A stretch of DNA of 12,066 nt, from IMG/VR virus record IMGVR_UViG_2718217787_000003; one strand, given 5' to 3'. How positions within the stretch are numbered: the stretch's first letter is position 1; the number at the start of each line of letters is the position of its first letter. A model generated the notes under the pieces. The model had not been told where the DNA came from and did no database searches. It saw only the letters and a list, made by a program, of their open reading frames with translations. Positions 58-12,066 of the stretch are shown here, one piece after another. This DNA is from a virus. Taxonomy: Duplodnaviria > Heunggongvirae > Uroviricota > Caudoviricetes. A program made the position numbers and the translations under genes.

Positions 58-363
58 TTACTCTGGTTCTTTGGTCTTGCGGCGCTGGAGTTCTTCACGT
101 GCGACAGTGACGAGCTGCCCGATCTCCTCGGCGGCTTTGATTCCGAGTTTTTCCACCTGCGCCAGTGCATCGAGCGAAGAAACCAGGGGATTTTCTCCAC
201 TTCCTTCTGCCTGGCGCCGGGCGATCTCACCGCGTACAGCCGTAACTATAAAATTCGCTTTAGTTTCCCCTGGCTGTAGGGATGCCTCAATGCCACTCAC
301 TACTTCATGTGGAAATCTGGCATTCAGTTGCTGTGACTTATTGTTAACAGAACTCCTGGACAT
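58..363 (-). CDS. Arc/Mnt-like ribbon-helix-helix DNA-binding protein (putative repressor), 101 aa
   Basis: The ORF track gives 58..543 (-), but the first in-frame ATG with a strong SD (GGGAGGTG, 6 nt upstream on the - strand) is at 363. The N-terminus QLNARFPHEVVSGIEASL...ANFIVTAVRGEIARR resembles the Arc/Mnt RHH signature (N-x-R-x-P-x-E-V ...). It is transcribed divergently from the rightward operon. Family assignment is by motif recognition only. Confidence 0.6.
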   Translation of the reverse strand: MSRSSVNNKSQQLNARFPHEVVSGIEASLQPGETKANFIVTAVRGEIARRQAEGSGENPLVSSLDALAQVEKLGIKAAEEIGQLVTVAREELQRRKTKEPE

Positions 364-568
364 GTTTGCACCTCCCATTAATAACGGGATGCAGTGTAAT
401 ACAAAAGTGAATACCAAAAAAGACTTGAAATGGTATTCACCTAAATGTAATGTGAATACCACAAGTGCTGATACATGCAATTCAGCAATTGAAACGACGA
501 AGCCCCGCACTGTTGGAGCAGTAACGGGGCTTCTAACCACCAACGATAACGAGAGTATCGAGGTAGCT
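364..568. promoter_or_regulatory. Divergent promoter/operator region between the RHH gene and the rightward operon
   Basis: GTGAATACC at 407-415 and 452-460, with the inverted copy GGTATTCAC at 432-440, giving two overlapping palindromic arrangements. TGTAAT also precedes both direct copies (395-400, 445-450). Candidate rightward promoter: TTGAAA (425-430), 17-nt spacer, TAATGT (448-453). Candidate leftward promoter (- strand): -35 TTGTAT (complement of 399-404), 16-nt spacer, -10 ATTAAT (377-382). A 9-bp inverted repeat GAAGCCCCG (499-507) / CGGGGCTTC (525-533) with a 17-nt spacer is also present. Promoter calls are consensus matches by eye. Confidence 0.4.
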
Positions 569-772
569 ATGAGAAATCATACCACACACCCGCAAGGGCG
601 GGACTCGCACAACCTGAATAAATACATCTGGCGTTTTATCGCCCTGAGCACTGCACAACCGCGCGTGATTACCATTGAGGCCACCAGCGAACAGGAAGCA
701 CGCCAGCAATCTCCGGCTGGCTGCGTGATGGTATTTGCCGCCCGTATTCGTCAGGGGGTGTGCCATGCTTAA
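569..772 (+). CDS. Small protein, 67 aa; hypothetical (tentatively Icd-like host cell division inhibitor family, from memory only)
   Basis: ATG at 569 with SD GAGG (560-563). This is the 3' part of track ORF 2..772, whose upstream portion is antisense to the RHH gene and the intergenic region. Stop TAA at 770-772 overlaps the next start (ATGCTTAA). Sequence MRNHTTHPQG...VITIEATSEQEARQ...VMVFAARIRQG. Confidence 0.5.
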   Translation: MRNHTTHPQGRDSHNLNKYIWRFIALSTAQPRVITIEATSEQEARQQSPAGCVMVFAARIRQGVCHA

Positions 773-950
773 AACCTTCCGTGTATTTGCCAGCGCTGTT
801 AACCCACTAGGCCACACAATTGGTATCGCTCAGAATGTGAAGGCTGTTAATGTTCAGACGGCTATTGCTGCGGTGAGAAGCGAATCATCAGAATATGGCT
901 TATCACAAGTCATTATTTCAGCAGTGTATGAATTAAAAGAGGTGCATTAA
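765..950 (+). CDS. Hypothetical small protein, 61 aa
   Basis: ATG at 765 overlaps the upstream stop, suggesting translational coupling, and is preceded by AGGGGG. Track ORF 735..950 trimmed to the first ATG. No recognisable motif. Confidence 0.45.
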   Translation: MLKTFRVFASAVNPLGHTIGIAQNVKAVNVQTAIAAVRSESSEYGLSQVIISAVYELKEVH

Positions 951-1141
951 TGAAGGAAATTACATTACACGAAGCCGCTGAACGTGCGCACCAGACAGAA
1001 ATTATTTGCCGCCTTCTTGAGGTATACCCTGATAAATTAAATGATGGTGATATATCCGCATTAGCTGGCCTTCTGGCAAAACTTTCTGGAAGTGTTGCGC
1101 TGTGGTTAATTGATGAGAGATTTAAACGCTATGAACAATAA
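950..1141 (+). CDS. Hypothetical small protein, 63 aa
   Basis: ATG at 950 overlaps the upstream stop (TAATG); SD AAAGAGGTG upstream. Predicted helical and acidic. Confidence 0.45.
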   Translation: MKEITLHEAAERAHQTEIICRLLEVYPDKLNDGDISALAGLLAKLSGSVALWLIDERFKRYEQ

Positions 1142-1373
1142 CAAACTGGCGACCAGTGAATTAAGAAGCCTTGCCAACAGCGCAATATCTTTAAACAACG
1201 CAGCGAACGAAGTAATGAACATGTGGCTTCAGTCGCTGGCGAATAATGAACGCGATGAATCAACCGCAAGATTAATATTAGCCGTTTCTGAATTACTGGA
1301 TAGTTCAACCAGCAAAATAGAGAGCATATCAGAGAAGATTAACGGCTTATCAGGTCACGCTATCGGAGAATAA
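1131..1373 (+). CDS. Hypothetical small protein, about 80 aa, N/S/L-rich
   Basis: Track ORF 1110..1373. Candidate starts are TTG 1110, ATG 1113 and ATG 1131; 1131 chosen because GAGAGA lies about 10 nt upstream. The start is uncertain. Overlaps the upstream ORF end. Confidence 0.4.
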   Translation: MNNNKLATSELRSLANSAISLNNAANEVMNMWLQSLANNERDESTARLILAVSELLDSSTSKIESISEKINGLSGHAIGE

Positions 1374-1378
1374 AAATA

Positions 1379-1678
1379 ATGAAACTTAAATATTCTGGCT
1401 TAACTGCCAGCGGCAAAACTCGCACTAAATTCATGTGCGGGGATATTTACCGCGATAAGTACGGCGGCACGGTAATGATTAAGGGCGTGGAGGAACGGCG
1501 CGTAACCTACCATCGTGAAGGCTACGAATATGATTGCGTGATGCCTGTTTATCAGTTCCGGCGTGATTTTTCTCTGGTACAGGCAGCGCCCCGCAGTAAA
1601 CCAACCAGCAGGGAGAAAGCACGCGCCAATATTCAGGAAATAAAAAAGATGCTTAACGTATTCAGGGGTAAAAAATGA
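1379..1678 (+). CDS. Hypothetical basic protein, 99 aa, immediately upstream of and coupled to the replication gene
   Basis: ATG at 1379 with GGAG about 10 nt upstream. Its TGA stop overlaps the primase ATG (ATGA at 1675-1678). Lys/Arg-rich C-terminus. Confidence 0.5.
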   Translation: MKLKYSGLTASGKTRTKFMCGDIYRDKYGGTVMIKGVEERRVTYHREGYEYDCVMPVYQFRRDFSLVQAAPRSKPTSREKARANIQEIKKMLNVFRGKK

Positions 1679-3807
1679 AACTGGCACCGAACGTAAAAAA
1701 ACAGCCACGCGGAATAAAACACAAAGACACAGAGGTGATTATTTTCGCGGGTAGTGATGCGTGGGCACATGCAAAACAGTGGCAGGAGCAGGACGGCCCC
1801 GCATCCGGCGATAATGTGCCTCCTGTGTGGCTTGGGGAGCAGCAGTTATCAGAACTGGATAAGCTGCAAATTGTGCCGGAAGGCAGAAAATCCGTGCGCA
1901 TATTCAGGGCCGGACATCTTGCACCAGTAATGATCAAGGCGATTGGTCAAAAGCTGGCGGCGGCTGGTGTACAGGATGCAAATTTTTATCCTGAGGGTAT
2001 GCACGGTCAGAAGGTGGAGAACTGGCGCGAATATCTGGCCCGTGAGCGGCAGAATCTTTCTGATGGTCTGGTTATTGAGTTTCCGGTAAAGAAAAAAGAT
2101 ACCGGAAGCCATAGCGATGACGAATTAAAGCCACGCGTTGAAAGTCGCGCCGATGGTGTTTTCTGGGTAACGCCCAAAGTGGATAAGCAGTCAGGCGAAA
2201 TTATCCGGCCTGAGACGTGGTTATGTTCTCCGCTTGAACTACTGGGAACGGGGACGATCGGTAAAGAGCATTACCGCGTGATGCGCTGGAAAAAAACCGC
2301 AAACCATGAAGTCATCACAATGGCGATCCCGTGTGGTGGTATCGGCGACCGTGACGGCTGGCGGTTACTTAAAGATCACGGGCTGAACGTGACAACCAAC
2401 GGCAAATACAGGGCAATCCTGGCGGACTGGATGCAGTTAAGCGGAAGCCATGAGGAATGGCAGTTAAGCACAACAACGGGCTGGCATTTTGGCGCGTACA
2501 TCATGCCGGACGGTTCGATCATTGGTGAATCTGAAAAACCGATCCTGTTTACCGGAAAAAGCGCCGCGATTAACGGTTATTCCGTGGCGGGCACGGCGGA
2601 TGGCTGGCGCGACAGCGTGGCGCGGCTGGCTGGCGGTAATGCCTCAATGATACTGGGTGTGGCAACGTCACTGGCAGCGCCTTTAATTGGCCTTGTGGGT
2701 GCTGACGGCTTCGGGGTGCATCTTTTCGAACAGTCATCGGCAGGTAAGACCACCACGCAGAACATCGCATCAAGTTTATGGGGAGAGCCGGACGCGCAGC
2801 GGCTGACCTGGTACGGCACGGCGTTAGGTATTGCCAATGAGGCCGAGGCCCATAATGACGGGCTTTTACCACTGGATGAGATAGGCCAGGCCGGAAATGC
2901 GCGGGAAGTGTCAACGTCTGCTTATACGCTGTTTAACGGTTCAGGGAAATTGCAGGGGGCGAAGGATGGCGGCAACAGGGAGATCAAACACTGGCGAACG
3001 GTGGCAATCAGCACCGGAGAAATGGACGTTGAGACATTCCTCAAAAGTGAGGGGATAAAAGTTAAGGCGGGGCAGCTTGTCCGACTGCTTAACGTTCCGA
3101 TGGAAAAAGCCACGAAATTTCACGAATACAGCAACGGTAAGGAACATGCTGACGCGTTAAAGGATGCCTGGACAGCAAATCACGGGGCGGCGGGTCGTGA
3201 GTGGGTTAAATGGCTGGCAGGCCACCAGCAGGAGGCAAAGGACACGGTAAGGGAATGCCGCGAACGGTGGCGCAACCTGATACCGGAGAGTTACGGCGAG
3301 CAGGTCCACCGCGTGGGTGAACGTTTCGCCATACTGGAGGCCGCGCTTGTGCTTTCCGGTCATGTAACTGGCTGGGTCGTGCAGGAATGCCGCGACGCGA
3401 TACAGCATAACTTTAATGCCTGGGTGAAGGAGTTCGGCACGGGTAACAGGGAATTTAAACAGATGGTTGAACAGGCTGAGGCGTTTTTGTCGTCGTTTGG
3501 GTTTAGCCGCTACCTTCCGTACCCCAATACAGATGAGCGTGATTTACCGATTAAAGAGCTTGCCGGATACAGAAAAGGGAGCATTCGCAACGAAGATGAC
3601 GAGATGCGCTATTACACGTTCCCGCACGTGTTTGAGAGTGAGATAGCGAAGGGATTTAATCCGGCGCATTTTGCGCGTGCCCTGGATGCTGCCGGAATGC
3701 TGGAGAAGGGAAGCGATCGCCGATACAAAAAAAAGGCGCTGGGCAAGATTGGGGGTAAGCAGCATGTTTTTTACGTGCTGATGTTCCAGCCTGATGATGA
3801 AGATTAA
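1675..3807 (+). CDS. Replication initiator: primase-associated (DUF927-like) region plus P-loop NTPase (Pri-Rep type of satellites/PICIs), 710 aa
   Basis: A 2.1-kb ORF with SD AGGGG 7 nt upstream of ATG 1675. Walker A motif GVHLFEQSSAGKTT at aa 347-360 (nt about 2713-2754). Its position immediately upstream of an iteron array matches the primase-then-ori layout of P4-like satellites and PICIs. Domain names are from motif recognition, not a search. Confidence 0.85.
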   Translation: MKLAPNVKKQPRGIKHKDTEVIIFAGSDAWAHAKQWQEQDGPASGDNVPPVWLGEQQLSELDKLQIVPEGRKSVRIFRAGHLAPVMIKAIGQKLAAAGVQDANFYPEGMHGQKVENWREYLARERQNLSDGLVIEFPVKKKDTGSHSDDELKPRVESRADGVFWVTPKVDKQSGEIIRPETWLCSPLELLGTGTIGKEHYRVMRWKKTANHEVITMAIPCGGIGDRDGWRLLKDHGLNVTTNGKYRAILADWMQLSGSHEEWQLSTTTGWHFGAYIMPDGSIIGESEKPILFTGKSAAINGYSVAGTADGWRDSVARLAGGNASMILGVATSLAAPLIGLVGADGFGVHLFEQSSAGKTTTQNIASSLWGEPDAQRLTWYGTALGIANEAEAHNDGLLPLDEIGQAGNAREVSTSAYTLFNGSGKLQGAKDGGNREIKHWRTVAISTGEMDVETFLKSEGIKVKAGQLVRLLNVPMEKATKFHEYSNGKEHADALKDAWTANHGAAGREWVKWLAGHQQEAKDTVRECRERWRNLIPESYGEQVHRVGERFAILEAALVLSGHVTGWVVQECRDAIQHNFNAWVKEFGTGNREFKQMVEQAEAFLSSFGFSRYLPYPNTDERDLPIKELAGYRKGSIRNEDDEMRYYTFPHVFESEIAKGFNPAHFARALDAAGMLEKGSDRRYKKKALGKIGGKQHVFYVLMFQPDDED

Positions 3808-3829
3808 TCCCCTGTGTGAGGAAAAAAAT

Positions 3830-4145
3830 TGCGGGTTATGCGGGTTATCCTGTGTATAAGTGTATTAAGTGTATGAATATAAAGGAAATCAATAACCCGC
3901 ACGTAACCCGCAAAAGGGCATTTATAACCCGCAAAAGCACGATTATAACCCGCAGGCGAATAACTGAAGTAACACCGGACAGTCATGCGTAACCCGCAGA
4001 AAAAACCCCGTTTGCGGGTTATTTTGAGCGTTTTGCGGGTTACGTGGTGAGCAAATAATAAACAGGGTGTTTTGCAACATGCTGATATAAAAGGGTAAAA
4101 AATGGTTAGCACGCTAAGATAACCCAATAACCCGCATAACCCGCA
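3830..4145. repeat. Iteron-type origin of replication
   Basis: Seven direct copies of TAACCCGCA (3893-3901, 3904-3912, 3925-3933, 3946-3954, 3990-3998, 4128-4136, 4137-4145) and four inverted copies TGCGGGTTA (3830-3838, 3839-3847, 4013-4021, 4034-4042), with a degenerate copy at 4120-4127. Three GTGTAT-containing repeats with roughly 9-10 bp spacing at 3852-3880. A (TA)n AT-rich tract lies just downstream at 4153-4170. No credible ORF on the + strand here. Confidence 0.8.
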
Positions 4146-4179
4146 CATGTTTCTATATATATATAAATTGAGGTGGCAA

Positions 4180-4431
4180 ATGACCAGAACACGCAGAGAC
4201 AGAACAGAGCCGAAATATAAAGCGTTAGATATAACAGAGCTGGCCTTAAAGGTGGCAATCAGAACGATAGACCGACACGTAGGGGAAGGATACGCGAAGG
4301 AACATCCCGACCTGATAAGCGCATTCATGACCACAGCAGCGGCAAACTTTGCCACGTTGACAGAACGGGAGATTGCCGAAGCGGAACAGGTAACAACCAT
4401 CAACGTTAAAACCGGAGAGTTGAAATCATGA
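4180..4431 (+). CDS. Hypothetical protein, 83 aa
   Basis: ATG at 4180 preceded by SD GAGGTGG (4170-4176); track ORF 4147..4431 trimmed. Stop overlaps the next start (ATGA at 4428-4431). Confidence 0.55.
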   Translation: MTRTRRDRTEPKYKALDITELALKVAIRTIDRHVGEGYAKEHPDLISAFMTTAAANFATLTEREIAEAEQVTTINVKTGELKS

Positions 4432-4742: not shown

Positions 4743-5153
4743 ATGACAGCACAAATTGCAGCTTACGGGCGGCTGGTGGACGACCCGCAGGTAAAACAGA
4801 CCAGCAAGGGTACACCGATGACGCTGGCGCGTATGGCGGTATCGCTGCCATGCAGCCAGGCACAGGATGGACAGGCGACGTTATGGCTATCGGTCATCGC
4901 ATTTGGTAAGCAGGCCGACTTCCTGGCTAAACATCAAAAAGGCGACGTTGCCAGCGTATCCGGCACGATGCAGGTCAGCCAGTGGACCGGACAGAACGGG
5001 GAAACGCGGCAGGGTTATCAGGTTATTGCAGACAGCGTAATCAGTGCCCGTGCGGCACGTCCTGGTGGGAGCCGACGCAAGACCACAGGCACACAGGGTA
5101 ATCAGCCACCAGCGGGAGGCGATGACCCTTACGGTGATGATATTCCGTTCTGA
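4743..5153 (+). CDS. ssb: Single-stranded DNA-binding protein, compact, 136 aa
   Basis: SD GAGGTGG (4732-4738) before ATG 4743. OB-fold-like core (...WLSVIAFGKQADFLAKHQKGDVASVSGTMQVSQWTGQNGETRQGYQVIADSV...) followed by a Gly/Pro-rich linker and the canonical SSB acidic C-terminal tip DDIPF (E. coli SSB ends DDDIPF). Confidence 0.85.
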   Translation: MTAQIAAYGRLVDDPQVKQTSKGTPMTLARMAVSLPCSQAQDGQATLWLSVIAFGKQADFLAKHQKGDVASVSGTMQVSQWTGQNGETRQGYQVIADSVISARAARPGGSRRKTTGTQGNQPPAGGDDPYGDDIPF

Positions 5154-5165
5154 GGGGTGGGGACG

Positions 5166-5438
5166 ATGGTACATGACCGCATAGCGGAAGAACTGGAGGC
5201 GAAAGGCTTTTACCGGAGAGCGTCGGCGCGATGGGGTGAAGTCATGCAACTGGTGGAGACAGACAAGGAACGGCATCAGGTTACGATGCGACGGCTGGAA
5301 TGTTCCAGGAAGGCACAGAGGCCACCGGAGCCGCCGGATAATTACGGAGACCTGAAAAAGGCGGTCGATCGCACTTATGCCGAAATGGGTATGGATGGTG
5401 CTGGTGATGAAATATGGCGAAATTACCAGGACAGATAA
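5166..5438 (+). CDS. Possible PerC-family transcriptional regulator, 90 aa
   Basis: ATG at 5166 with SD GAGGGGTGGGGA upstream; the track ORF starts at GTG 5157. N-terminus MVHDRIAEELEAKGFYRRASARWGEVM resembles the PerC/Pch family signature as I remember it; family call is tentative. Followed by a terminator. Confidence 0.55.
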   Translation: MVHDRIAEELEAKGFYRRASARWGEVMQLVETDKERHQVTMRRLECSRKAQRPPEPPDNYGDLKKAVDRTYAEMGMDGAGDEIWRNYQDR

Positions 5439-5725: not shown

Positions 5726-6883
5726 ATGCCGAGAATAATCGAATTACGCCAGCAGAAAACCGCCATTAAAAATCAGATGCGCGACATGCTGGAGAACGCG
5801 GAAAAAGAAAACCGCAGCCTTAACGATGCTGAGGGCGCAAAATTTGACGAATTACGCGCTAAAGCTGAATCCCTCGATAAAGACATCTCCCGCCTTGAGG
5901 CCGTTGCTGACGAAGAGCGCAGTAAACCAGGCAAAAACAGCCAGACCACTGACCCCGCCGAACTACGTCACTACATTCTGACAGGTGAAACCCGCGCATT
6001 GAGTACAGGCGTTCCCGCTGATGGTGGTTATACCGTTATCCCCGAACTGAACACCGAAATCATGCGAATGCTGACGGATGAATCCACCATGCGCCGCATC
6101 TGTACCGTGAAGAAAATCAGCAGCAACGAGTTTAAGCAGCTTGTTTCCGCTGGCGGTGCGACCGTTAACCACGGTGAAGAGGGTAAGGCACGCGAACAGA
6201 CCAGCACCCCGCAGATTAACGAGGTGAGCATTAAGCTGTATCCGGTCTATGCGTACCCGCGCACCACGCAGGAAATCGTGGATTTTTCCGATGTGGACAT
6301 CCTTTCATGGCTGACGGGCGAGATTGGCGACACCTTCACGGAAACCGAAGAAAGCGATCTGGTTGTGGGCGACGGTGACAAAAAAGCAAAAGGTTTTTTA
6401 TCCGTACCCCGTGCAGAGAAGAACGACAAAGAGCGTGATTTTGGTACGTTGCAGGTAATTAAACCTTCCGAATCTCTGGCGTGGACATCTGCGGACCCGC
6501 TGATCGACCTGAAATTTGCATTACGTAAAAAATACCGCAAAAACGCGGTTTGGGTGGTTAACTCCACGACGGCGGCAAAACTCCAGAAGGTGAAGAACGC
6601 GAACGGTGATTACATCTGGCGCGACCGTTTACAGGCGGGTGATCCTGATACGTTGCTGGGCCTTCCGGTCGAATATCTGGAGTTTATGCCTGATAACGTT
6701 ATTGCCCTGGGTGACTTCAAACGCGGTTACTACATTGTTGATCACGAAACAGGTGTTCGCACCAGACCGGACAACCTCACAGAGCCGGGCTTTATCAAAA
6801 TTTTCACGCAGAAATATTTAGGCGGTGGCGTGGTGGATTCGAACGCTATAAAGATTCTGGAACTGCCGCAGGACGACGATTAA
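5726..6883 (+). CDS. Major capsid protein, HK97 fold, with N-terminal coiled-coil delta (scaffold-like) domain, 385 aa
   Basis: ATG at 5726 with AGGA 8 nt upstream; the track ORF begins at GTG 5678. The N-terminal 90 aa are coiled-coil-like (IELRQQKTAIKNQMRDMLENAEKENRSLNDAEGAKFDELRAKAESLDKDISRLEAV), followed by a body typical of HK97-family capsid proteins. A prohead protease gene follows directly. Confidence 0.9.
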   Translation: MPRIIELRQQKTAIKNQMRDMLENAEKENRSLNDAEGAKFDELRAKAESLDKDISRLEAVADEERSKPGKNSQTTDPAELRHYILTGETRALSTGVPADGGYTVIPELNTEIMRMLTDESTMRRICTVKKISSNEFKQLVSAGGATVNHGEEGKAREQTSTPQINEVSIKLYPVYAYPRTTQEIVDFSDVDILSWLTGEIGDTFTETEESDLVVGDGDKKAKGFLSVPRAEKNDKERDFGTLQVIKPSESLAWTSADPLIDLKFALRKKYRKNAVWVVNSTTAAKLQKVKNANGDYIWRDRLQAGDPDTLLGLPVEYLEFMPDNVIALGDFKRGYYIVDHETGVRTRPDNLTEPGFIKIFTQKYLGGGVVDSNAIKILELPQDDD

Positions 6884-6937: not shown

Positions 6938-7495
6938 ATGATGAGTATGGAAATCCGGTCATCGGAAATCACCACCAGCGGCAGCAACACGCTTACGGGC
7001 TACGTTGTTCGCTGGGATAACCTTTCAGAACTGCTATGGGGCGAATTTTACGAAAAATTCCAGCGGGGGGCGTTTACTGAATGGCTTGCGGTGGGTAATG
7101 ACGTTCGCGGCCTGTATGAGCATGACCACAGCATGTTACTGGGGCGCACCCGTTCCGGTACGCTGAGACTGGAAGAGGATGACACAGGGTTACGTTTTGA
7201 ACTGATCCCACCGGATACCAGCACAGGGCGGGACGTTATCGAACTGGTTAAACGTGGTGACATCTCGGGCATGAGCTTTGGCTTTCGTTCCCGTAAGGAT
7301 GTATGGGATACGACAGTCGATCCATGTGTGCGTACTGTACTGATAGCGGAACTGTACGAAATTACCGTGACATCCGTACCGGCTTACCCTGATTCCGGCG
7401 TGGAGCTGGCCCGCCGTTCCCTGTATGAGCAGCACCCTGAAAAAATGCCTCGTGCGGATAATCGCCGCTGGTGGGCGGATTTAGCGGGGGTGTGA
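6938..7495 (+). CDS. Prohead maturation protease, HK97 family, 185 aa
   Basis: SD AGGTGA (6925-6930) before ATG 6938. Sequence (…LTGYVVRWDNLSELLWGEFYEKFQRGAFTEWL…) and position between the capsid and portal genes fit HK97-type prohead proteases. Confidence 0.85.
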   Translation: MMSMEIRSSEITTSGSNTLTGYVVRWDNLSELLWGEFYEKFQRGAFTEWLAVGNDVRGLYEHDHSMLLGRTRSGTLRLEEDDTGLRFELIPPDTSTGRDVIELVKRGDISGMSFGFRSRKDVWDTTVDPCVRTVLIAELYEITVTSVPAYPDSGVELARRSLYEQHPEKMPRADNRRWWADLAGV

Positions 7496-7496
7496 T

Positions 7497-8708
7497 ATGT
7501 GGCCTTTCAGAAGAAAAAAAGAGCAGCGCAGCATGACGCTTGATGAGTTTATGGCGCTGGCTGGCACATCGAACACGGGGGCGGGTGAGTACGTATCATC
7601 GGGGACAGCGGAATCACTGCCCGCCGTCATGAACGCCGTCACGGTCATCTCTGAGGCGGTGGCTACCATGCCGTGTTACCTGTACCTGGTACGCAATGAG
7701 AAGGGGAAGGAGGCCCGAGAGTGGCTTGATTCTCATCCGGTCGATCACATCCTCAACGAGCGCCCGAACGCATGGCAAACCCCCTACCAGTTTAAGCGAA
7801 TGATGATCCGCCACTGCCTGTTAAACGGTAATGCTTATGCGGTGATTCGGTGGGGGCGTGATGGTTTTCCGGTGGCTTTACATCCTTACCCGCCGCAGTC
7901 GGTGAACGTGGAGCAGACAGGTGAGCATAACTGGCGCTACTGCATCACTGACGCCTACACCGGAAACACCCGCAACTATTTACCGTGGGAGGTTCTCCAC
8001 CTTCGTTACTCCACGGATGACGGTTTTATGGGGCGCTCACCTGTAACCATCTGCCGCGAATCGCTGGGGCTTGGGCTGGCCCAACAACGCCACGGCGCGA
8101 GCGTGATGCGTGATGGCATGATGGCGGCAGGGGTTATCACGTCAGGCGAGTGGCTGGACGGCGTGAAGGGTAAACAGGCATTAGCCGCACTGGAACGCTA
8201 CAAAGGGGCCAGAAACGCCGGAAAAACGCCCATCCTTGAAGGGGGTATGAGCTATCAGCAGCTGGGCATGAGTAATCAGGATGCTGAATGGCTGGCCTCC
8301 CGTCGCTTCACCATTGAAGACATCGCCCGAATGTTCAACGTCTCGCCGATTTTTTTGCAGGAATACAGCAACAGCACCTACAGCAATTTCAGCGAGGCAA
8401 GCCGCGCATTTCTCACCATGACGATGCGCCCGTGGCTGGCGAACTTTGAGCAGCAGATAAAAAACGCCCTGCTGGTGGCCTCGCCTGTACCTGGTATCCG
8501 GTATCAGGTGGAGTTTGACAGCGCGGACCTGTTACGGGCCACACCTGGCGAACGCTTTGCCACCTATGAACGCGGCATCAAATCCGGCGTTATGTGCCCG
8601 AACGAAGCCCGCGAACGTGAAGGGCTGTCCCCGCGTGATGGTGGTGATGAGTTCAGCCAGGCATGGAAACAGGAAGTAAAAATCAGCGAGGGAGAAAAAC
8701 CGGAATGA
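7497..8708 (+). CDS. Portal protein, HK97 family, 403 aa
   Basis: ATG at 7497, 1 nt after the protease stop, with SD GGGGGTG upstream. Size and sequence character fit HK97-type portals. An alternative start at ATG 7539 is possible. Confidence 0.85.
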   Translation: MWPFRRKKEQRSMTLDEFMALAGTSNTGAGEYVSSGTAESLPAVMNAVTVISEAVATMPCYLYLVRNEKGKEAREWLDSHPVDHILNERPNAWQTPYQFKRMMIRHCLLNGNAYAVIRWGRDGFPVALHPYPPQSVNVEQTGEHNWRYCITDAYTGNTRNYLPWEVLHLRYSTDDGFMGRSPVTICRESLGLGLAQQRHGASVMRDGMMAAGVITSGEWLDGVKGKQALAALERYKGARNAGKTPILEGGMSYQQLGMSNQDAEWLASRRFTIEDIARMFNVSPIFLQEYSNSTYSNFSEASRAFLTMTMRPWLANFEQQIKNALLVASPVPGIRYQVEFDSADLLRATPGERFATYERGIKSGVMCPNEAREREGLSPRDGGDEFSQAWKQEVKISEGEKPE

Positions 8709-9043
8709 ACATAGGGCGACTGCGTGACAGGATAACGATTCAGACCCTGAAACAGACCAGGGATATAACCGGCGAAATACTCGAAACGTGGGTGGACGGT
8801 CACACACTCTGGGCAAGCGTGAACATGATCAGCAGCAAGGAGGCCATTTCATCGGGTGCAGAACTGGCGACTGGAACGGTAAGGATATGGATACGCTACA
8901 GGAAGGACATCAACGCCACCAGCCGGATAAAGGTCAATACGGGGCCGCTGGCGGGGCGTGTACTGAATATCATCGGGCAGCCGCTGCCGGATGCCGCCAG
9001 GACACGCCTTGAAATTCTTTGTCGTGAGGGCGCGGAAAAATGA
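8705..9043 (+). CDS. Head closure / head-tail joining protein (SPP1 gp16-like), 112 aa
   Basis: ATG at 8705 overlaps the portal stop (ATGA); track ORF 8663..9043 trimmed to this ATG. MNIGRLRDRITIQ...RIWIRYRKDI...LEILCRE matches the head-tail joining family pattern as I recall it. Confidence 0.75.
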   Translation: MNIGRLRDRITIQTLKQTRDITGEILETWVDGHTLWASVNMISSKEAISSGAELATGTVRIWIRYRKDINATSRIKVNTGPLAGRVLNIIGQPLPDAARTRLEILCREGAEK

Positions 9044-9336
9044 CAGAAGAACTTATCACCCTGGAAGAAGTGAAACTCCATTGCCGCATCGATGGCGACG
9101 AGGAAGACCAGTTAATCAGCGGATACATCGCCGCATCGCTTGAGGCGTGCCAGATACACATAGGCAGGCGCTTTGATGACGGGCTGGAGTTCACGCCAGC
9201 CATAAAGATTGGCTGCATGATGTTTATCGCTCACCTGTATGAAAATCGCCAGATTGTCGCGGATAACGCAAAAACACGCGTACCCATGACGATTGGTGCA
9301 CTCTGGACGGCTTACCGTGATGTGGGGGTGTACTGA
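9040..9336 (+). CDS. gp6-like head-tail connector protein, 98 aa
   Basis: ATG at 9040 overlaps the upstream stop (ATGA). N-terminus LITLEEVKLHCRIDGDEEDQLISGYIAAS is typical of gp6-like connector proteins. Confidence 0.75.
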   Translation: MTEELITLEEVKLHCRIDGDEEDQLISGYIAASLEACQIHIGRRFDDGLEFTPAIKIGCMMFIAHLYENRQIVADNAKTRVPMTIGALWTAYRDVGVY

Positions 9337-9776
9337 TGCCGTGGCAACCATTAAGACGATGCACAGAACCAGGCTGTAACAGGCGCGTGAAGTCCGGCAA
9401 GTGTGAGGAGCACAGGCGGGCGGCATGGCGTGCAGAGGATGCCAGACGAGGACACCGCCGCGCGCGTGGGTACTCCAGACAGTGGGACAAATACCGCGCC
9501 ATGTATCTGAGTAAAAACCCGTTATGCGTGCGATGCCTTGAGAAGGGGATATATACGCCCGCCGTGGTGGTGGATCACATTATCCCGATTAATGGCGGTG
9601 ATGATGTTCTCTTCTGGCCCGAATGGAACCATCAGCCATTGTGCCAGGCGTGCCATAACCAGAAAACGAAATGGCTTGATCCGGCAACAAAAAGCAAGCG
9701 TGCCGCAGGTGGATTTCGTGAAGAGGAAGAACGGGCCGCTAACCGCAATAACTGGATGTATGACGCTGATGAATGA
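9336..9776 (+). CDS. HNH endonuclease (packaging-associated), 146 aa
   Basis: ATG at 9336 overlaps the connector stop (TGATG). Cys pairs (CxxC) and an HNH core DHIIPINGGDDVLFWPEWNHQPLCQACHNQKT. Sits directly upstream of the terminase genes, as in HK97-like cos phages. Confidence 0.9.
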   Translation: MPWQPLRRCTEPGCNRRVKSGKCEEHRRAAWRAEDARRGHRRARGYSRQWDKYRAMYLSKNPLCVRCLEKGIYTPAVVVDHIIPINGGDDVLFWPEWNHQPLCQACHNQKTKWLDPATKSKRAAGGFREEEERAANRNNWMYDADE

Positions 9777-10064: not shown

Positions 10065-10421
10065 ATGGCAAGACCACCGAAAGCCCCCGCCTACCTTGAT
10101 GACATCGCCGTAAAGCAGTGGCGGGAAAAATCGCGCCAGCTTGCGGAACGGGGAGACCTCACCCCCGCCGACTGGAGTAATCTCGAACTGTATTGCGTCA
10201 ACTACTCGATATACAGGAAAGCCGTCGCAGACCTTGCGGCACGCGGGTTCAGCATTGTTAACAGTCAGGGCGGAGAGAGCAGAAACCCCGCATTAAGCGC
10301 GAAATCCGACGCTGAAAGAGTGATGATAAAAATGGCCTCCTTGCTTGGTTTTGACCCGATAAGCCGCCGTAAAAATCCACCGGAAACAGAAGAAGAGGAC
10401 GAGCTTGACCACCTGGAATAA
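10065..10421 (+). CDS. terS: Terminase small subunit, P27-family-like, 118 aa
   Basis: ATG at 10065. Size, charge pattern (acidic C-terminus EEEDELDHLE) and position directly upstream of terL. Sequence (MARPPKAPAYLDD...RNPALSA...MASLLGFDPISRRK) fits P27-type TerS as I recall it. Confidence 0.8.
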   Translation: MARPPKAPAYLDDIAVKQWREKSRQLAERGDLTPADWSNLELYCVNYSIYRKAVADLAARGFSIVNSQGGESRNPALSAKSDAERVMIKMASLLGFDPISRRKNPPETEEEDELDHLE

Positions 10422-12066
10422 GTACGCAGAAGACGTAAAAACGGGCAAAATTCCGGCCTGTAAACGGTTAAAACAGGCCGTTAAACGGTACTTTTCGGAC
10501 CTTAAAAGTCCCCTTTACACGTTCGATAGTGAGGTTGTGGAGCGGTTTATTGCCTTTTCAAGGGTGTGCCCGCACGTAAAAGGGCCGTTGCGTGGCAGAC
10601 CCATTGAGCTGGAGCCGTGGCAGCAGTTCGCCTTTGCGTGCATCCTGGGTTTTAAGGTTAAGGCCACCGGACGGCGCAAATACTCGAGCGCTTTTATCGA
10701 AGTACCGCGAAAAAATGCGAAATCCACGACCGCCGCGATTCTGGCTGACTGGTTTCTGATTATGGAGAACGGGCAGCAGGATATTTACACCGCAGCGGTG
10801 AGCCGTGACCAGGCACGGATCGTGTTTGATGATGCGCGTCAGATGTGCCTTTTATCCCGACCGTTACGCAGGCGGGTGAATATTCAGGCCCACAAGGTGA
10901 TACACCCGAAAACCAACAGCCTGTTAAAGCCGCTGGCAGCAAAAGCGGCAACCATCGAGGGGACAAACCCGAGTCTTGCCATTGTGGACGAATATCACCT
11001 GCACCCCGATAACGGCGTTTATTCCGCGCTTGAGCTGGGGATGGGTGCACGTCCCGAAGGGCTGTTATTTGCCATTACCACATCGGGAAGTAACGTCGTT
11101 TCAGCCTGTAAGCAGCACTATGATTATTGCTGCCAGATCCTGGACGGCGAAGAGGTCAACGAATCGCTTTTTGTGCTGATTTACGAGCTGGACGATGAAA
11201 ACGAGGTTGACGATCCGGCGATGTGGATAAAGGCGAATCCCAATATCGATGTTTCCGTTGATCGTGAAAAACTGGCCTCAACCATCCAGAAAGCGCGGGG
11301 TATTCCGTCGCAGTGGGTGGAGATGATGACAAAGCGGTTTAACATCTGGTGCCAGGGGGCCACCCCGTGGATGGGTAACGGGGCGTGGGCTGAGTGTGCC
11401 GGAACGTTCACGGAGGAGGATTTACACGGCCAGGAATGTTACGCGGGGCTTGATTTGTCATCCACAAGCGACATTTCCAGCGTGTGCTATGCCTTTCCGG
11501 TCGGCAAAAAAATTATGCTGCTTTCCCGTCACTATCTGCCGGAATTTCAGCTACAGAACCCCGCCAACAAGAACCGGGCCATTTATCGCCAGTGGGCTAA
11601 ATCGGGCTGGTTGCGGATAACGCCGGGCGACTGCATTGATTACGACCGGATCCGCGATGACATCATGGAGGACGCGGAAAAATTTGATATCAGGCTGGTG
11701 GGCTTTGATACGTGGAACGCCACGCATCTCAGGACGCAATTACAGGGGGCAGGGTTTGAGGTTGAGCCGTTCCCGCAAACCTATCTGAGATTCAGTCCGG
11801 CGGCGAAATCGTTCGAAGTTTTTGTTAACCGCAGGGTGATAGTCCATCGTGATGATCCGGTGTTGTCGTGGTCGATGAGTAACGTCGTGATGCAGAGTGA
11901 CGCGAACGCCAATATCAAGCCAAACAAGAAAAAATCACCGAACAAGATAGACCCGAGCGTGGCGGCACTGATGGCGTTTGGCACATTCCAGGCAGAGCAT
12001 GAAGATTTTGCTTTTGATATAAGCGACAGCCACCGCGAAAAACTGGAAGAATTTAACGGGGTGTGA
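10405..12066 (+). CDS. terL: Terminase large subunit, 553 aa
   Basis: A 1.66-kb ORF directly after terS. The first in-frame start is TTG at 10405 with SD GAAGAGGA (10391-10398); the next candidates are a GTG about 130 nt downstream and an ATG at codon 120. Overlaps terS by 17 nt. Size and sequence fit HK97-type large terminases (ATPase plus nuclease). Stop TGA at 12064-12066 is the window end. Confidence 0.88.
   Translation: MTTWNKYAEDVKTGKIPACKRLKQAVKRYFSDLKSPLYTFDSEVVERFIAFSRVCPHVKGPLRGRPIELEPWQQFAFACILGFKVKATGRRKYSSAFIEVPRKNAKSTTAAILADWFLIMENGQQDIYTAAVSRDQARIVFDDARQMCLLSRPLRRRVNIQAHKVIHPKTNSLLKPLAAKAATIEGTNPSLAIVDEYHLHPDNGVYSALELGMGARPEGLLFAITTSGSNVVSACKQHYDYCCQILDGEEVNESLFVLIYELDDENEVDDPAMWIKANPNIDVSVDREKLASTIQKARGIPSQWVEMMTKRFNIWCQGATPWMGNGAWAECAGTFTEEDLHGQECYAGLDLSSTSDISSVCYAFPVGKKIMLLSRHYLPEFQLQNPANKNRAIYRQWAKSGWLRITPGDCIDYDRIRDDIMEDAEKFDIRLVGFDTWNATHLRTQLQGAGFEVEPFPQTYLRFSPAAKSFEVFVNRRVIVHRDDPVLSWSMSNVVMQSDANANIKPNKKKSPNKIDPSVAALMAFGTFQAEHEDFAFDISDSHREKLEEFNGV

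Follow-up and report, generated by a model that had tools for sequence, protein, structure and literature searches.

Five small genes ahead of the replication gene of a capsid-forming satellite of Escherichia coli O157:H7: an early cassette with an Icd-like protein and a possible role in host arrest

Introduction

The left operon of satellite P4 carries small genes (kil, epsilon, orf106), one of them toxic to the host, ahead of the alpha primase. In P4-like prophages Icd-like genes occur between AlpA/Vis and the primase, and they were among the targets in the ECOR15 Abc1 screen (PMC13612085). PICIs and P4 have been argued to have evolved independently (Fillol-Salom 2018, PMC6092414). In PICIs AlpA is the known master activator of downstream genes (PMC6092414), and the ori is located downstream of pri-rep (Fillol-Salom 2018, PMC6092414). 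Capsid-forming PICIs are recognised by int, alpA, pri-rep and their own packaging and capsid genes, by the lack of tail or lysis genes and by a size of about 15 kb; for EcCIEDL933 only, induction and transfer were shown to depend on a helper, the transfer being in capsids of PICI size with phage tails (10.1101/2022.09.08.507074). The published PICI papers assign no functions to the small ORFs that are the subject of this work (10.1101/2022.09.08.507074; PMC6092414).

A second line of evidence comes from a preprint of Silas et al. (bioRxiv 10.1101/2023.04.06.535777) on a six-gene module of strain ECOR61 that reaches from an Icd-like gene through a DNA primase and leads to growth arrest or death upon expression of orf24, an early protein of podophage VEc3. 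Toxicity was relieved by transposon insertions in the first three genes, at QOYT01000045.1:8940-9132 (192 nt), 9131-9317 (186 nt) and 9309-9675 (366 nt, Icd-like), with polar effects of Tn5 being possible in these data. All six genes, primase included, were needed to rebuild the phenotype, and the effect in a laboratory strain was described as “muted” (10.1101/2023.04.06.535777).

Identity and distribution of the island

Here, we analyse five small ORFs in a viral record (IMGVR_UViG_2718217787_000003; the window, i.e. the whole stretch of 12,066 nucleotides). The island carries int, AlpA (PF05930, E=3.4e-16), DUF927 replicase, SSB, PerC, capsid, protease, portal, connector, HNH, TerS and TerL genes, with no tail genes among those annotated, and the L001 island annotation spans 9409-24362, about 15 kb. 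This is the gene content of a capsid-forming PICI. Judged by this EcCIEDL933-type gene set, which bears out the satellite assignment of an earlier sequence-only reading, the window represents a capsid-forming PICI of the EcCIEDL933 type from E. coli O157:H7, and the five ORFs are the front of its early (replication) operon.

Of 5426 complete E. coli genomes, 1920 (about a third) carry the cassette at least in part. Megablast against 50,697 phage genomes gave no match. Tblastn against the same number of phage records retrieved for ORF1 the cf-PICI-like vB_KppS-Ant only and for ORF5 weak DUF4222 relatives in Klebsiella and Stx phages only; neither protein showed similarity to P4 records of this collection.

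Architecture of the cassette

The coordinates of the five ORFs and of the replication gene (Table 1) were taken directly from the letters of the window. ORF1 and ORF2 overlap by 8 nt (ATGCTTAA at 765-772), ORF2 and ORF3 by 1 nt (TAATG at 948-952) and ORF3 and ORF4 by 11 nt (1131-1141), and ORF5 is joined to the replication gene by ATGA at 1675-1678; ORF4 and ORF5 are separated by a gap of 5 nt, and no overlap had been claimed there before. Across eight independent islands the junctions overlap in 25 of 34 cases, the remaining gaps being ≤17 nt. Recognisable Shine-Dalgarno sequences precede ORF1, ORF3 and ORF5. Since none is recognisable for ORF2 (preceded by a non-canonical AGGGGG only), ORF4 and the replicase, translation is most likely handed on from gene to gene, beginning at ORF1 and ending at the DUF927 replicase. 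We infer translational coupling of the cassette from the geometry of its junctions. GC content is 0.40-0.44 across about 750-1500, compared with about 0.50-0.60 in most of the window. The sequence-only reading had given the same coordinates, sizes (61-99 aa) and overlaps, had noted the AT-richer stretch and had placed the ORFs between the switch, here a divergent regulator with its operator region, and the replication gene, all of which stands on direct reading, apart from ORF1 itself, which at a GC of 0.52 is not AT-rich.

Table 1. Features of the early cassette and its surroundings (positions in the window)
Feature	Position	Strand	Product	Remarks
Divergent YlcI/YnfO-family gene	58-363	-	ribbon-helix-helix-like	NF041551 E=9e-17; phrog_6522 E=5e-45
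Operator-like repeats	407-461			GTGAATACCA at 407-416 and 452-461; inverted TGGTATTCAC at 431-440
Weak sigma70-like promoter (by eye)	TTGAAA 425-430, TAATGT 448-453			17-nt spacer; overlapped by the operator-like repeats
GC-rich hairpin	499-545			ORF1 leader; arms 499-507 and 525-533, inner 4-bp stem
ORF1	569-772	+	67 aa, pI 10	Icd-like; own SD GAGGT, 4-nt spacing
ORF2	765-950	+	61 aa	near-orphan; start within the ORF1 stop region ATGCTTAA
ORF3	950-1141	+	63 aa, acidic, pI 5.2	helix-rich composition; TAATG-coupled; GAGGT SD
ORF4	1131-1373	+	80 aa, acidic, pI 4.8	helix-rich composition; motif MWL..L..NE
ORF5	1379-1678	+	99 aa, pI 10, charge +12.6	DUF4222
Replication gene	1675-3807	+	DUF927 primase-helicase-type	sixth, coupled gene of the module
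Putative origin	3829-4170			at least 11 iteron copies TGCGGGTTA/TAACCCGCA in both orientations

Comparative evidence shows all five ORFs to be genuine protein-coding genes. In NZ_CP039834.1 (E. coli O157:H7 chromosome), a record with 100% identity, the CDSs called by PGAP are precisely these five, and every ORF has a PHROG match (E 1e-30 to 1e-51). The ratio dN/dS is 0.10-0.45 across ORF1, ORF3, ORF4 and ORF5. In the comparison of ORF2 with its homolog from E. albertii pN/pS amounts to 0.43 in frame, as against 1.5 and 0.93 in the shifted frames, and the differences are distributed 19/22/41 over the three codon positions. The antisense ORFs 533-817, 1129-1308 and 1400-1708 were rejected as true genes, as they gave no Pfam match and a single weak PHROG match (E=2e-4). 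Rejected as well was a single large plus-strand gene in the frame 2-772, which is in frame with an upstream “Icd-like pseudogene” of PGAP: its translation opposite the YlcI/YnfO gene is Ser/Ala/Cys-rich junk, and the upstream openness differs among islands from 26 to 410 codons.

The switch and leader upstream of ORF1

The divergent YlcI/YnfO-family gene (PGAP CDS WP_001403025.1, 100 aa) presumably provides the repressor of the switch; among the E. coli islands that were fetched and checked, a small minus-strand RHH, YlcI/YnfO or HicB-like gene is found at the equivalent position. The candidate ORF1 promoter was located by eye, and a consensus promoter scan found none there. In the island alignment each variant has its own repeat sequence at the operator position, beside a TTGAC-type -35. 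From this layout we infer that transcription of the operon begins at a promoter with which operator repeats peculiar to each island overlap, facing a divergent ribbon-helix-helix gene; the operon would be switched on at satellite induction. The 247-aa “hypothetical protein” annotated downstream of alpA probably represents regulatory, non-coding DNA in which a small divergent regulator gene is hidden.

The leader of ORF1 contains a conserved hairpin that is followed by an invariant TCTAACCACCAACG at 532-545. Its RNA fold has a z of -4.2, its 13 pairs are 90% paired versus 28-52% when slid, and covariation (four pairs with double changes) reached a score found in 0 of 500 shuffles. In the variants L002 and L017 the hairpin was flagged as minus-strand terminator-like. 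An upstream immunity RNA of the P1 C4, P4 CI or isrK type was rejected, since an Rfam search of the window and five islands gave none at E≤0.1-1. Leftovers of this search were chance-level RsaJ and mir-499 and a sub-threshold SymR.

ORF1 and the Icd family

By profile comparison ORF1 is a true homolog of Icd from phage P1. It scores 69.8 bits (E=1.4e-19, cut-off 25) against NCBIfam NF033153 (Icd-like), and P1 Icd scores 52.6 bits (E=3.4e-14) against the same model; direct alignment of both proteins with hhalign gives a probability of 96% (E=2.4e-9) with 35% identity across 43 residues. BLAST alone did not detect this homology between ORF1 and P1 Icd. For ORF1 dN/dS is 0.12-0.40. The structure predicted with AF2 comprises a disordered N-terminus and a beta-beta-alpha-beta core (core pLDDT 82-86), and its search against BFVD gave nothing at E≤1e-3. 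An Icd-like identity for 569-772 had earlier been offered as a guess and proves correct.

ORF2, ORF3 and ORF4

ORF2 (phrog_3672, E=9e-46) is, on the evidence of its homologs, a near-orphan with an allele that is nearly invariant across E. coli islands. Its family has only 6 clusters among 1.84e9 representatives. The exact protein was found in 7191 index blocks, with 100% nucleotide identity in islands L002 and L011-15; the E. albertii homolog is 48% identical. Because ORF2 is absent from many islands and thus dispensable there, it is not a core life-cycle function. Its predicted beta-beta-alpha-beta arrangement is similar to that of ORF1, yet a cryptic Icd-like paralog was rejected at sequence level (hhalign probability 0.2%).

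ORF3 and ORF4 are, as far as profile matches tell, recurrent acidic families. ORF3 (phrog_1478, E=4e-34; dN/dS 0.22) has homologs in Escherichia and Shigella only, with relatives of 53-80% identity in the CFT073 and RM14723 islands. ORF4 (phrog_5796, E=7e-51; dN/dS 0.10, calculated from few differences) has relatives of 28-34% identity at the same position in islands L003, L004, L005 and L008, its family being the recurrent last small gene ahead of DUF4222. That ORF3 and ORF4 are paralogs of each other was rejected (hhalign probability 5.9%). PDB sequence searches with ORF1 and ORF5 as single sequences and with ORF3, ORF4 and ORF5 profiles gave nothing below E of about 0.5.

ORF5, the replicase and the putative origin

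ORF5 covers the full 53-position model of Pfam PF13973 (DUF4222) with 80.8 bits (gathering 27, E=5e-23). The earlier statement that none of the ORFs matches a nameable family was therefore too pessimistic, all five having a PHROG family in addition. The modelled ORF5 may consist of an SH3/Tudor-like beta core and a basic C-terminal helix; the fold search returned the generic SH3/Tudor class, from a low-confidence model. In an alignment scan with one genome per species DUF4222 of this kind was found in Shigella flexneri and E. albertii only, and at that stringency the 99-aa form is essentially restricted to Escherichia and Shigella.

The final codons of ORF5 (AGG GGT AAA AAA TGA) combine a Shine-Dalgarno-like AGGGG with the ATGA overlap with the replicase start. 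Among the islands checked this overlap is always present, whatever the replicase family (DUF927, P4-type primase, RepA helicase or D5_N/DUF5906), and relatives of DUF4222 adjoin replication genes, just upstream of them, in lambdoid and Klebsiella phages. The replicase itself matches PF06048 (E=1e-48) and phrog_1139 “DNA primase” (E=8e-191). The putative origin behind it includes a (TA)n AT-rich tract at 4150-4170.

Relation to the ECOR61 cell-death module

The published ECOR61 lengths of 192, 186 and 366 nt equal those of ORF3, ORF2 and a GTG407-TAA772 reading of ORF1, and the overlaps of 1 and 8 nt are those of ORF2/ORF3 and ORF1/ORF2. ECOR61 thus shares with the window an Icd-like, a 186-nt and a 192-nt gene with 8- and 1-nt overlaps in six linked genes ending in a primase. 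Among the fetched islands a pair of 186- and 192-nt genes occurs only in modules with ORF2 and ORF3. The cassette therefore appears to be the same six-gene unit as ECOR61, as judged by lengths, overlaps and annotation, not by sequence; the exact 121-aa Icd-like form was not found on record. The Icd-like protein of ECOR61 was described as carrying a long extension at its N-terminus; here the same stretch crosses the operator repeats and the hairpin, and this extension is probably non-coding regulatory DNA.

As ORF2 probably depends on translation of ORF1, the published result that Icd is the effector could equally reflect loss of ORF2/ORF3 expression. Deletion of ORF1 is expected to silence ORF2 by lost coupling. 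With genetic data published for a cassette that is very probably this one, the earlier label “unknown function” no longer applies in the strict sense, and the host-takeover role that had been listed among the possibilities agrees with the homology to Icd as well as with the cell-death module of ECOR61.

Possible functions of the cassette

We read the five ORFs, with a probability of about 50%, as a translationally coupled early cassette in which ORF1-3 serve host arrest or phage sensing and ORF4-5 are accessories of replication. ORF1 to ORF3 would form a host-arrest and phage-sensing unit in which the Icd-like ORF1 may act as a small protein-binding inhibitor and ORF2 and ORF3 as obligatory partners or sensors; ORF4 and ORF5 would assist or tune the replicase that is coupled to them. 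Besides the muted effect of ECOR61 in a laboratory strain, two observations speak against this reading. In PADLOC-DB v2 neither ORF1-5 nor the RHH protein or the replicase matched a defence model at E≤0.01, and PHROG labels the families of ORF1 “transcriptional repressor”, which points to a role other than host arrest.

The same label suits a possible, but in our opinion rather unlikely, alternative in which the five proteins are purely accessories of the satellite life cycle and the toxicity of ECOR61 is a by-product of runaway replication or over-expression and no evolved anti-phage function. ORF1 would then be a Cro-like regulator, or a mere leader cistron that opens the mRNA for later genes, ORF3 and ORF4 would act as modulators on replication factors of the host, and DUF4222 would serve the replicase as a cofactor or assist by binding to the origin. 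ORF1 indeed comes first opposite a divergent repressor-like gene, the classic position of Cro, and DUF4222 is the invariable partner of replicases described above. Uncontrolled replication of EcCICFT073 under AlpA over-expression lowers growth and viability of the host (PMC6092414), and the need for all six ECOR61 genes, primase included, fits as well. However, the suppressor insertions in ECOR61 hit only the first three small genes and none was reported in the primase, the largest target. The rebuilt system still required orf24 when driven from pBAD, which argues for post-transcriptional sensing over simple induction. Moreover, the predicted fold of ORF1 matches no known DNA-binding fold, and ORF2 is missing from many islands.

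That the ORFs are directed at the helper, either as derepression sensors on helper infection or by interference with helper reproduction, seems improbable. Models for helper interference are epsilon in P4 and Ppi, Cpm and Rpp in other PICIs. The position of the cassette may be regarded as analogous to that of the small genes before the primase in the P4 left operon, its middle genes differ between islands as arms-race genes would, and ORF3 and ORF4 resemble many phage-protein inhibitors in being small and acidic. Yet capsid-forming PICIs build their own capsids and package with their own terminase, and in EcCIEDL933 mutations of packaging genes left helper transfer unaffected and induction was credited to AlpA (10.1101/2022.09.08.507074). 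Apart from the cf-PICI-like and DUF4222 relatives, tblastn of ORF1 and ORF5 gave no BLAST-level similarity to phage or P4 proteins. The only known trigger stems from a virulent SP6-like podophage, which is not a helper, and nothing was found in support of the derepression-sensor and helper-interference roles that the sequence-only reading had regarded as typical for this position.

Very improbable is a toxin–antitoxin-like addiction module that makes up all or part of the cassette and stabilises the island. The Icd-like protein would then be the toxin, and the antidote either one of the small proteins next to it or an antisense RNA that terminates at the leader hairpin. Over-produced P1 Icd is toxic according to its annotation, one island has a HicB-type antitoxin-like gene at the divergent position, and in two variants the hairpin resembles a minus-strand terminator. 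The match to SymR (an antisense antitoxin RNA), which in L004 spans the hairpin and the start of ORF1 on the minus strand, has been mentioned above, but its score is far under gathering (33 vs 61 bits), and a minus-strand promoter was looked for and none found. Furthermore, Pfam, NCBIfam and PADLOC gave no match to a known toxin–antitoxin family, and the genes share their transcript with the replication gene and do not form an autonomous pair.

Finally, the notion that part of the ORFs are fortuitous reading frames of an AT-rich spacer, for which one could cite their shortness and the lack of Pfam or NCBIfam matches for ORF2-4, is effectively refuted by dN/dS (ORF1, ORF3, ORF4 and ORF5) and pN/pS (ORF2), with purifying selection on the annotated frames, lengths and junctions kept across species, strong PHROG matches and the PGAP calls.

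Beyond the preferred reading as a cassette for host arrest or phage sensing and for replication, a broader and at present doubtful proposal is that the stretch from the Icd-like gene to DUF4222 in E. coli PICIs represents an unrecognised satellite-borne sensor–effector system that detects early proteins of virulent phages and arrests the host. Detection, e.g. of VEc3 orf24, would take place at the protein level. ORF2, as a young and nearly invariant allele spread over otherwise diverged islands, would be the specificity determinant. Arrest would be tied to satellite replication directly through translational coupling, and the leader hairpin together with a possible antisense RNA would provide a second layer by gating translation of the whole chain.

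The cassette resides in the best-studied Gram-negative satellites, EcCICFT073 and EcCIEDL933, yet the PICI literature leaves its genes blank. The present analysis ties these early genes to a genetic result that was published as the ECOR61 “prophage” cell-death system. If this link is true, the early operon of PICIs has a second use as a device for abortive infection or host arrest in response to virulent phages that are not helpers, and a defence function is located in the satellite core and not merely in accessory hotspots. If it fails, these are ordinary, well-conserved early genes of a satellite.

Comparison with known systems

The authors of the ECOR61 study regarded their module as a prophage superinfection exclusion or PCD system. 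With mini-inhibitors of the T7 Gp2, RNAP epsilon and phi29 p56 type the likeness is at fold level only.

The immI operon of phage P1 (c4 - icd - ant1/2) shares the Icd core with ORF1. P1 icd, annotated as “inhibitor of cell division” and apparently needed for ant expression, is likewise a small first cistron directly behind the immunity control region, and its stop overlaps the next start (4 nt with ant1; here 8 nt). In contrast with P1, no C4-type antisense RNA is detectable here, the genes behind ORF1 are unrelated to Ant, and control appears to be protein-based (RHH) with operator repeats. The left operon of P4 has a similar layout of an immunity region, several small genes and then a primase, but its immunity is RNA-based.

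Closest are EcCIEDL933 and EcCICFT073, which have the same order of Icd-like gene, small ORFs, DUF4222, replicase, SSB, PerC and packaging genes. The O157 island at pepT/roxA, of EcCIEDL933-type layout, is 100% identical in ORF2, 95% in ORF3, 98% in ORF4, 96% in ORF5 and 100% in the replicase. The CFT073 island shares ORF1 (98%), a relative of ORF3 (53%), DUF4222 (85%) and an ORF4-family gene at the same position. ORF1 is a mosaic allele of the CFT073 type with 56% identity to the EDL933 type. The present island differs further in its integration site, between the yehB/rcnR side and thiMD, in its 100-aa YlcI/YnfO regulator with operator repeats of its own and in an extra Icd-like pseudogene upstream.

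Gene content and operon anatomy of the cassette

The five small genes ahead of the replicase gene were all re-read in the window sequence at the places where the sequence-only reading had put them. The chained junctions it described are present as well: ORF1 and ORF2 overlap by 8 nt (ATGCTTAA), ORF2 and ORF3 by 1 nt (TAATG), ORF3 and ORF4 by 11 nt, and ORF5 and the replicase gene by 4 nt (ATGA); ORF4 and ORF5 are separated by a 5-nt gap. Its remark that this stretch is AT-richer applies to positions ~750-1500 (GC 0.40-0.44 versus 0.50-0.60 elsewhere) but not to ORF1 itself (0.52).

ORF1-ORF5 are real genes. PGAP annotates exactly these five CDSs in a ~15-kb island of the Escherichia coli O157:H7 MB41-1 chromosome, each of them matches a PHROG family (E 1e-30 to 1e-51), and comparison with diverged island copies gives dN/dS values of 0.12-0.40 for ORF1, 0.22 for ORF3, 0.10 for ORF4 (based on few differences) and 0.23-0.45 for ORF5. 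Since ORF2 is too invariant within E. coli for this calculation, its Escherichia albertii homolog was used instead, which is 48% identical, also 61 aa long and preceded by the same ATGCTTAA junction. For this pair the annotated frame gives a pN/pS of 0.43 and the shifted frames give 1.5 and 0.93, with 19, 22 and 41 differences at codon positions 1, 2 and 3. Antisense ORFs were considered as genes and rejected as being without credible support.

The cassette is a tightly overlapped chain of six genes, with an Icd homolog at its head and a DUF4222 protein at its end overlapping the replicase gene. A recognisable SD core is found at ORF1, ORF3 and ORF5 only. Among the eight islands compared 25 of 34 junctions overlap, and we regard this gene and operon anatomy as very well founded.

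Coordinates of the cassette, its upstream region and the downstream genes in the window
Feature	Position	Strand	Product or remark
Spacer	364-568		contains operator repeats and hairpin
GTGAATACCA repeats	407-461		direct at 407 and 452, inverted at 431
Hairpin	499-533		followed by TCTAACCACCAACG (to 545)
ORF1	569-772	+	67 aa
ORF2	765-950	+	61 aa
ORF3	950-1141	+	63 aa
ORF4	1131-1373	+	80 aa
ORF5	1379-1678	+	99 aa
Replicase gene	from 1675	+	710 aa, DUF927
Iteron/AT-rich region	3829-4170		likely replication origin
SSB	4743-5153
PerC-family regulator	5166-5438
Major capsid	5726-6883
HK97-type protease	6938-7495
Portal	7497-8708
Head closure	8705-9043
Connector	9040-9336
HNH	9336-9776
TerS	10065-10421
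TerL	10405-12066

The satellite carrying the cassette

The first 4 kb of the window are 100% identical to the MB41-1 chromosome, and no DNA-level match to the window was found in any phage genome. The island reads integrase, a 257-aa hypothetical protein, an AlpA regulator (PF05930, E=3e-16), an Icd-like pseudogene, a YlcI/YnfO gene on the minus strand, the five ORFs, the DUF927 replicase, two hypothetical proteins, SSB and PerC, followed by the packaging genes for major capsid, prohead protease, portal, head closure, connector, HNH, TerS and TerL; its annotation contains no tail or lysis genes. This is the architecture of a capsid-forming phage-inducible satellite (cf-PICI), the prototype of which is EcCIEDL933 (10.1101/2022.09.08.507074). 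The packaging module is complete in the window, its last base being the window end. Directly behind the replicase gene at least 11 iterons (TGCGGGTTA/TAACCCGCA) in both orientations and a (TA)n AT-rich tract form the likely replication origin of the island.

Compared with the EcCIEDL933-type island at pepT/roxA of O157 strains, the window proteins are 100% (ORF2), 95% (ORF3), 98% (ORF4), 96% (ORF5) and 100% (replicase) identical. The window is a mosaic in which ORF1 is of the CFT073 type and ORF2-ORF5 are of the EDL933 type; the breakpoint lies at ~731, inside the conserved 3' end of ORF1.

Comparative anatomy across islands

Of the 5426 complete E. coli genomes, 1920 contain some part of positions 569-1678 and 151 carry at least 80% of them. 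In the eight islands compared in detail the first gene is always Icd-like, and DUF4222 is the last small gene in all seven from E. coli. Its stop overlaps the ATG of the replicase gene (ATGA) whether the latter encodes a DUF927 protein, a P4-type primase, a RepA helicase or a D5_N/DUF5906 protein. The conserved ORF5 tail FRGKK is encoded by TTC AGG GGT AAA AAA TGA, codons that also supply an SD-like AGGGG for the replicase. Between these bookends one to four small genes are found; ORF3-type proteins recur, as do ORF4-type proteins directly before DUF4222 (28-34% identity), and ORF2 occurs in a subset of islands only.

ORF2 DNA is 97.8-100% identical between the window and the E. coli island records L002, L005, L011-L015 and L018, despite flanking genes that are 20-45% diverged at the protein level (ORF1 56% and ORF3 80% identity), and its next relative is the E. 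albertii homolog. This pattern suggests one young allele that was spread by recombination through E. coli PICIs.

LR881103.1 ('Escherichia phage vB_KppS-Ant', 16.5 kb) was deposited as a phage and is cf-PICI-like by layout: int and a regulator are followed by a 324-aa ORF with an Icd-like domain at its C-terminal end, two small ORFs, primase, capsid, portal, connectors and terminase. A 766-aa gene annotated as tape measure protein is present as well, and DUF4222 is absent. Relatives of DUF4222 also occur in lambdoid phages, where they follow cro/cII-like genes and precede replication gene O in the early-right operon. A 277-aa 'regulatory protein' of Stx2a phage Stx2_14744 (2915-3748) has the domain at its N-terminus, and a Klebsiella phage (L009, 3001-3141) has a DUF4222-matching frame without annotation.

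Identity of the encoded proteins

The earlier guess that 569-772 is Icd-like proved correct: ORF1 matches the NCBIfam Icd-like model (E=1.4e-19), which authentic P1 Icd also passes, and P1 Icd aligns with the ORF1 profile (probability 96%) along 43 residues, 35% of them identical. In the AlphaFold model of ORF1 the N-terminus is disordered and the core is beta-beta-alpha-beta (pLDDT 82-86); BFVD contained no significant match. ORF5 belongs to Pfam DUF4222 (E=5e-23), is strongly basic (net charge +12.6, pI 10) and is predicted (pLDDT 61, core 70-76) as a four-stranded SH3/Tudor/KOW-like meander with a basic C-terminal helix. ORF3 (pI 5.2) and ORF4 (pI 4.8) are acidic and of helix-rich composition, with no relatives in Pfam, NCBIfam or PDB. 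ORF2 is found in only six clusters among 1.84 billion representatives, its exact protein occurring in 7191 index blocks. For ORF1-ORF5 neither membrane segments were predicted nor PADLOC matches obtained.

Upstream switch and leader hairpin

A weak -35/-10 pair in the spacer is surrounded by the three GTGAATACCA copies. Other island variants carry their own distinct repeat at the same position beside a TTGAC-type -35, and each has its own divergent small gene (YlcI/YnfO, HicB-like or an unannotated RHH type). Judged from this pairing of variant repeats with variant regulators, it looks like an immunity-specificity region.

In EcCIEDL933-type islands the divergent regulator is hidden under a dubious 247-aa plus-strand annotation that is probably wrong. 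In L002, an island record of this type, this 'hypothetical protein' (3615-4358, +) downstream of alpA, which is the 'variable gene of unknown function' of He et al., translates into Cys/Ser/Arg-rich junk; opposite to it lies an unannotated 63-aa ribbon-helix-helix-like ORF (4058-4249, -) with a weak TraJ-like match (E=0.007). In the window a plus-strand frame (2-772; 11726-12175 in L001, the annotated island record) stays open for 349 codons from the Icd-like pseudogene across the YlcI/YnfO antisense into ORF1; it was probably left behind by module exchange, with chance playing a part.

Downstream of the repeats a conserved GC hairpin of 13 pairs is followed by the invariant TCTAACCACCAACG, which may bear a loose resemblance to an rrn-type boxA. 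The hairpin is 90% paired versus 28-52% in slid controls, its region has an RNA fold z of -4.2, and four pairs show compensatory double changes; the covariation score was reached by 0 of 500 shuffles in a sample of only about five sequence types. On the minus strand of two variants (EDL933-type and Shigella) the hairpin looks like an intrinsic terminator, and in L004, another island record, a sub-threshold SymR-like Rfam match covers it on that strand. A cis-antisense RNA that would hide the ribosome-binding site of ORF1 may end at this hairpin. No C4 or isrK RNA was detected by Rfam in the window and five islands; such matches were reported in some Gram-negative PICIs (Mageeney et al., PMC10111431). 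A plus-strand terminator-like hairpin, CACACAAACGGCCTTTGTGTG then GCGTTTTCTG, is located inside the EDL933-type Icd-like CDS (L002 4419-4439, L017 3171-3191) and is missing from the Icd allele of the window; it could act as an attenuator, or the WRF codons may produce it by coincidence.

Possible function and relation to known systems

AlpA is the helper-induced master activator of downstream PICI genes (PMC6092414), and most Enterobacter satellites are recorded as having Icd-like genes (PMC13612085). Published PICI papers contain no characterisation of ORF1-ORF5. We propose that upon island induction the cassette would be transcribed from the operator-controlled promoter; ribosomes would load at ORF1, with boosts at ORF3 and ORF5, and translation would be carried through to the replicase. 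ORF1-ORF3 would act as a host-arrest and phage-sensing unit and ORF4 and ORF5 would serve the replicase. The arrest and sensing function is tentative, with a probability of about 0.35-0.45.

It draws on E. coli ECOR61, which is killed by orf24 (Silas et al., 10.1101/2023.04.06.535777), a 69-aa early protein of the virulent podophage VEc3 whose gene directly precedes ocr. Killing was suppressed by Tn5 insertions in three neighboring genes: the Icd-like gene measures 366 nt, the next one 186 nt with an 8-nt overlap, and the third 192 nt with a 1-nt overlap with the second (10.1101/2023.04.06.535777). These are the exact lengths and overlaps of ORF2 and ORF3, and the reading GTG407-TAA772, which is in frame with ORF1, has exactly the 366 nt of the first gene (a 121-aa 'extended Icd-like' form). 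Among the fetched islands the 186/192 pair occurs in ORF2/ORF3 modules only. From gene lengths, overlaps and the specificity of this pair we infer that the ECOR61 system is the ORF1-replicase cassette. The 'long N-terminal extension' that Silas et al. noted in its Icd-like protein spans the operator repeats and the hairpin, and so is probably untranslated. A parallel screen in ECOR15 pointed to a P4-like prophage, with hits in its AlpA, Icd-like and primase genes and in a small gene (10.1101/2023.04.06.535777).

The main rival sees the ORFs as purely replication or regulatory accessories and toxicity as a side effect of runaway replication. We consider this rival somewhat less likely than the arrest and sensing reading. 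As to the effector within the proposed arrest and sensing unit, ORF2 has no SD of its own and starts inside the ORF1 stop, thus removal of ORF1 should silence ORF2, perhaps also ORF3, and loss of ORF1 would not pin the effector down.

Names or clusters already exist for the families concerned (Icd-like, DUF4222, PHROGs), the cassette belongs to well-known satellites, and the window copy is a mosaic member of them. The connection of the early operon of PICIs with the ECOR61 cell-death module may be new, as may the upstream regulatory anatomy.
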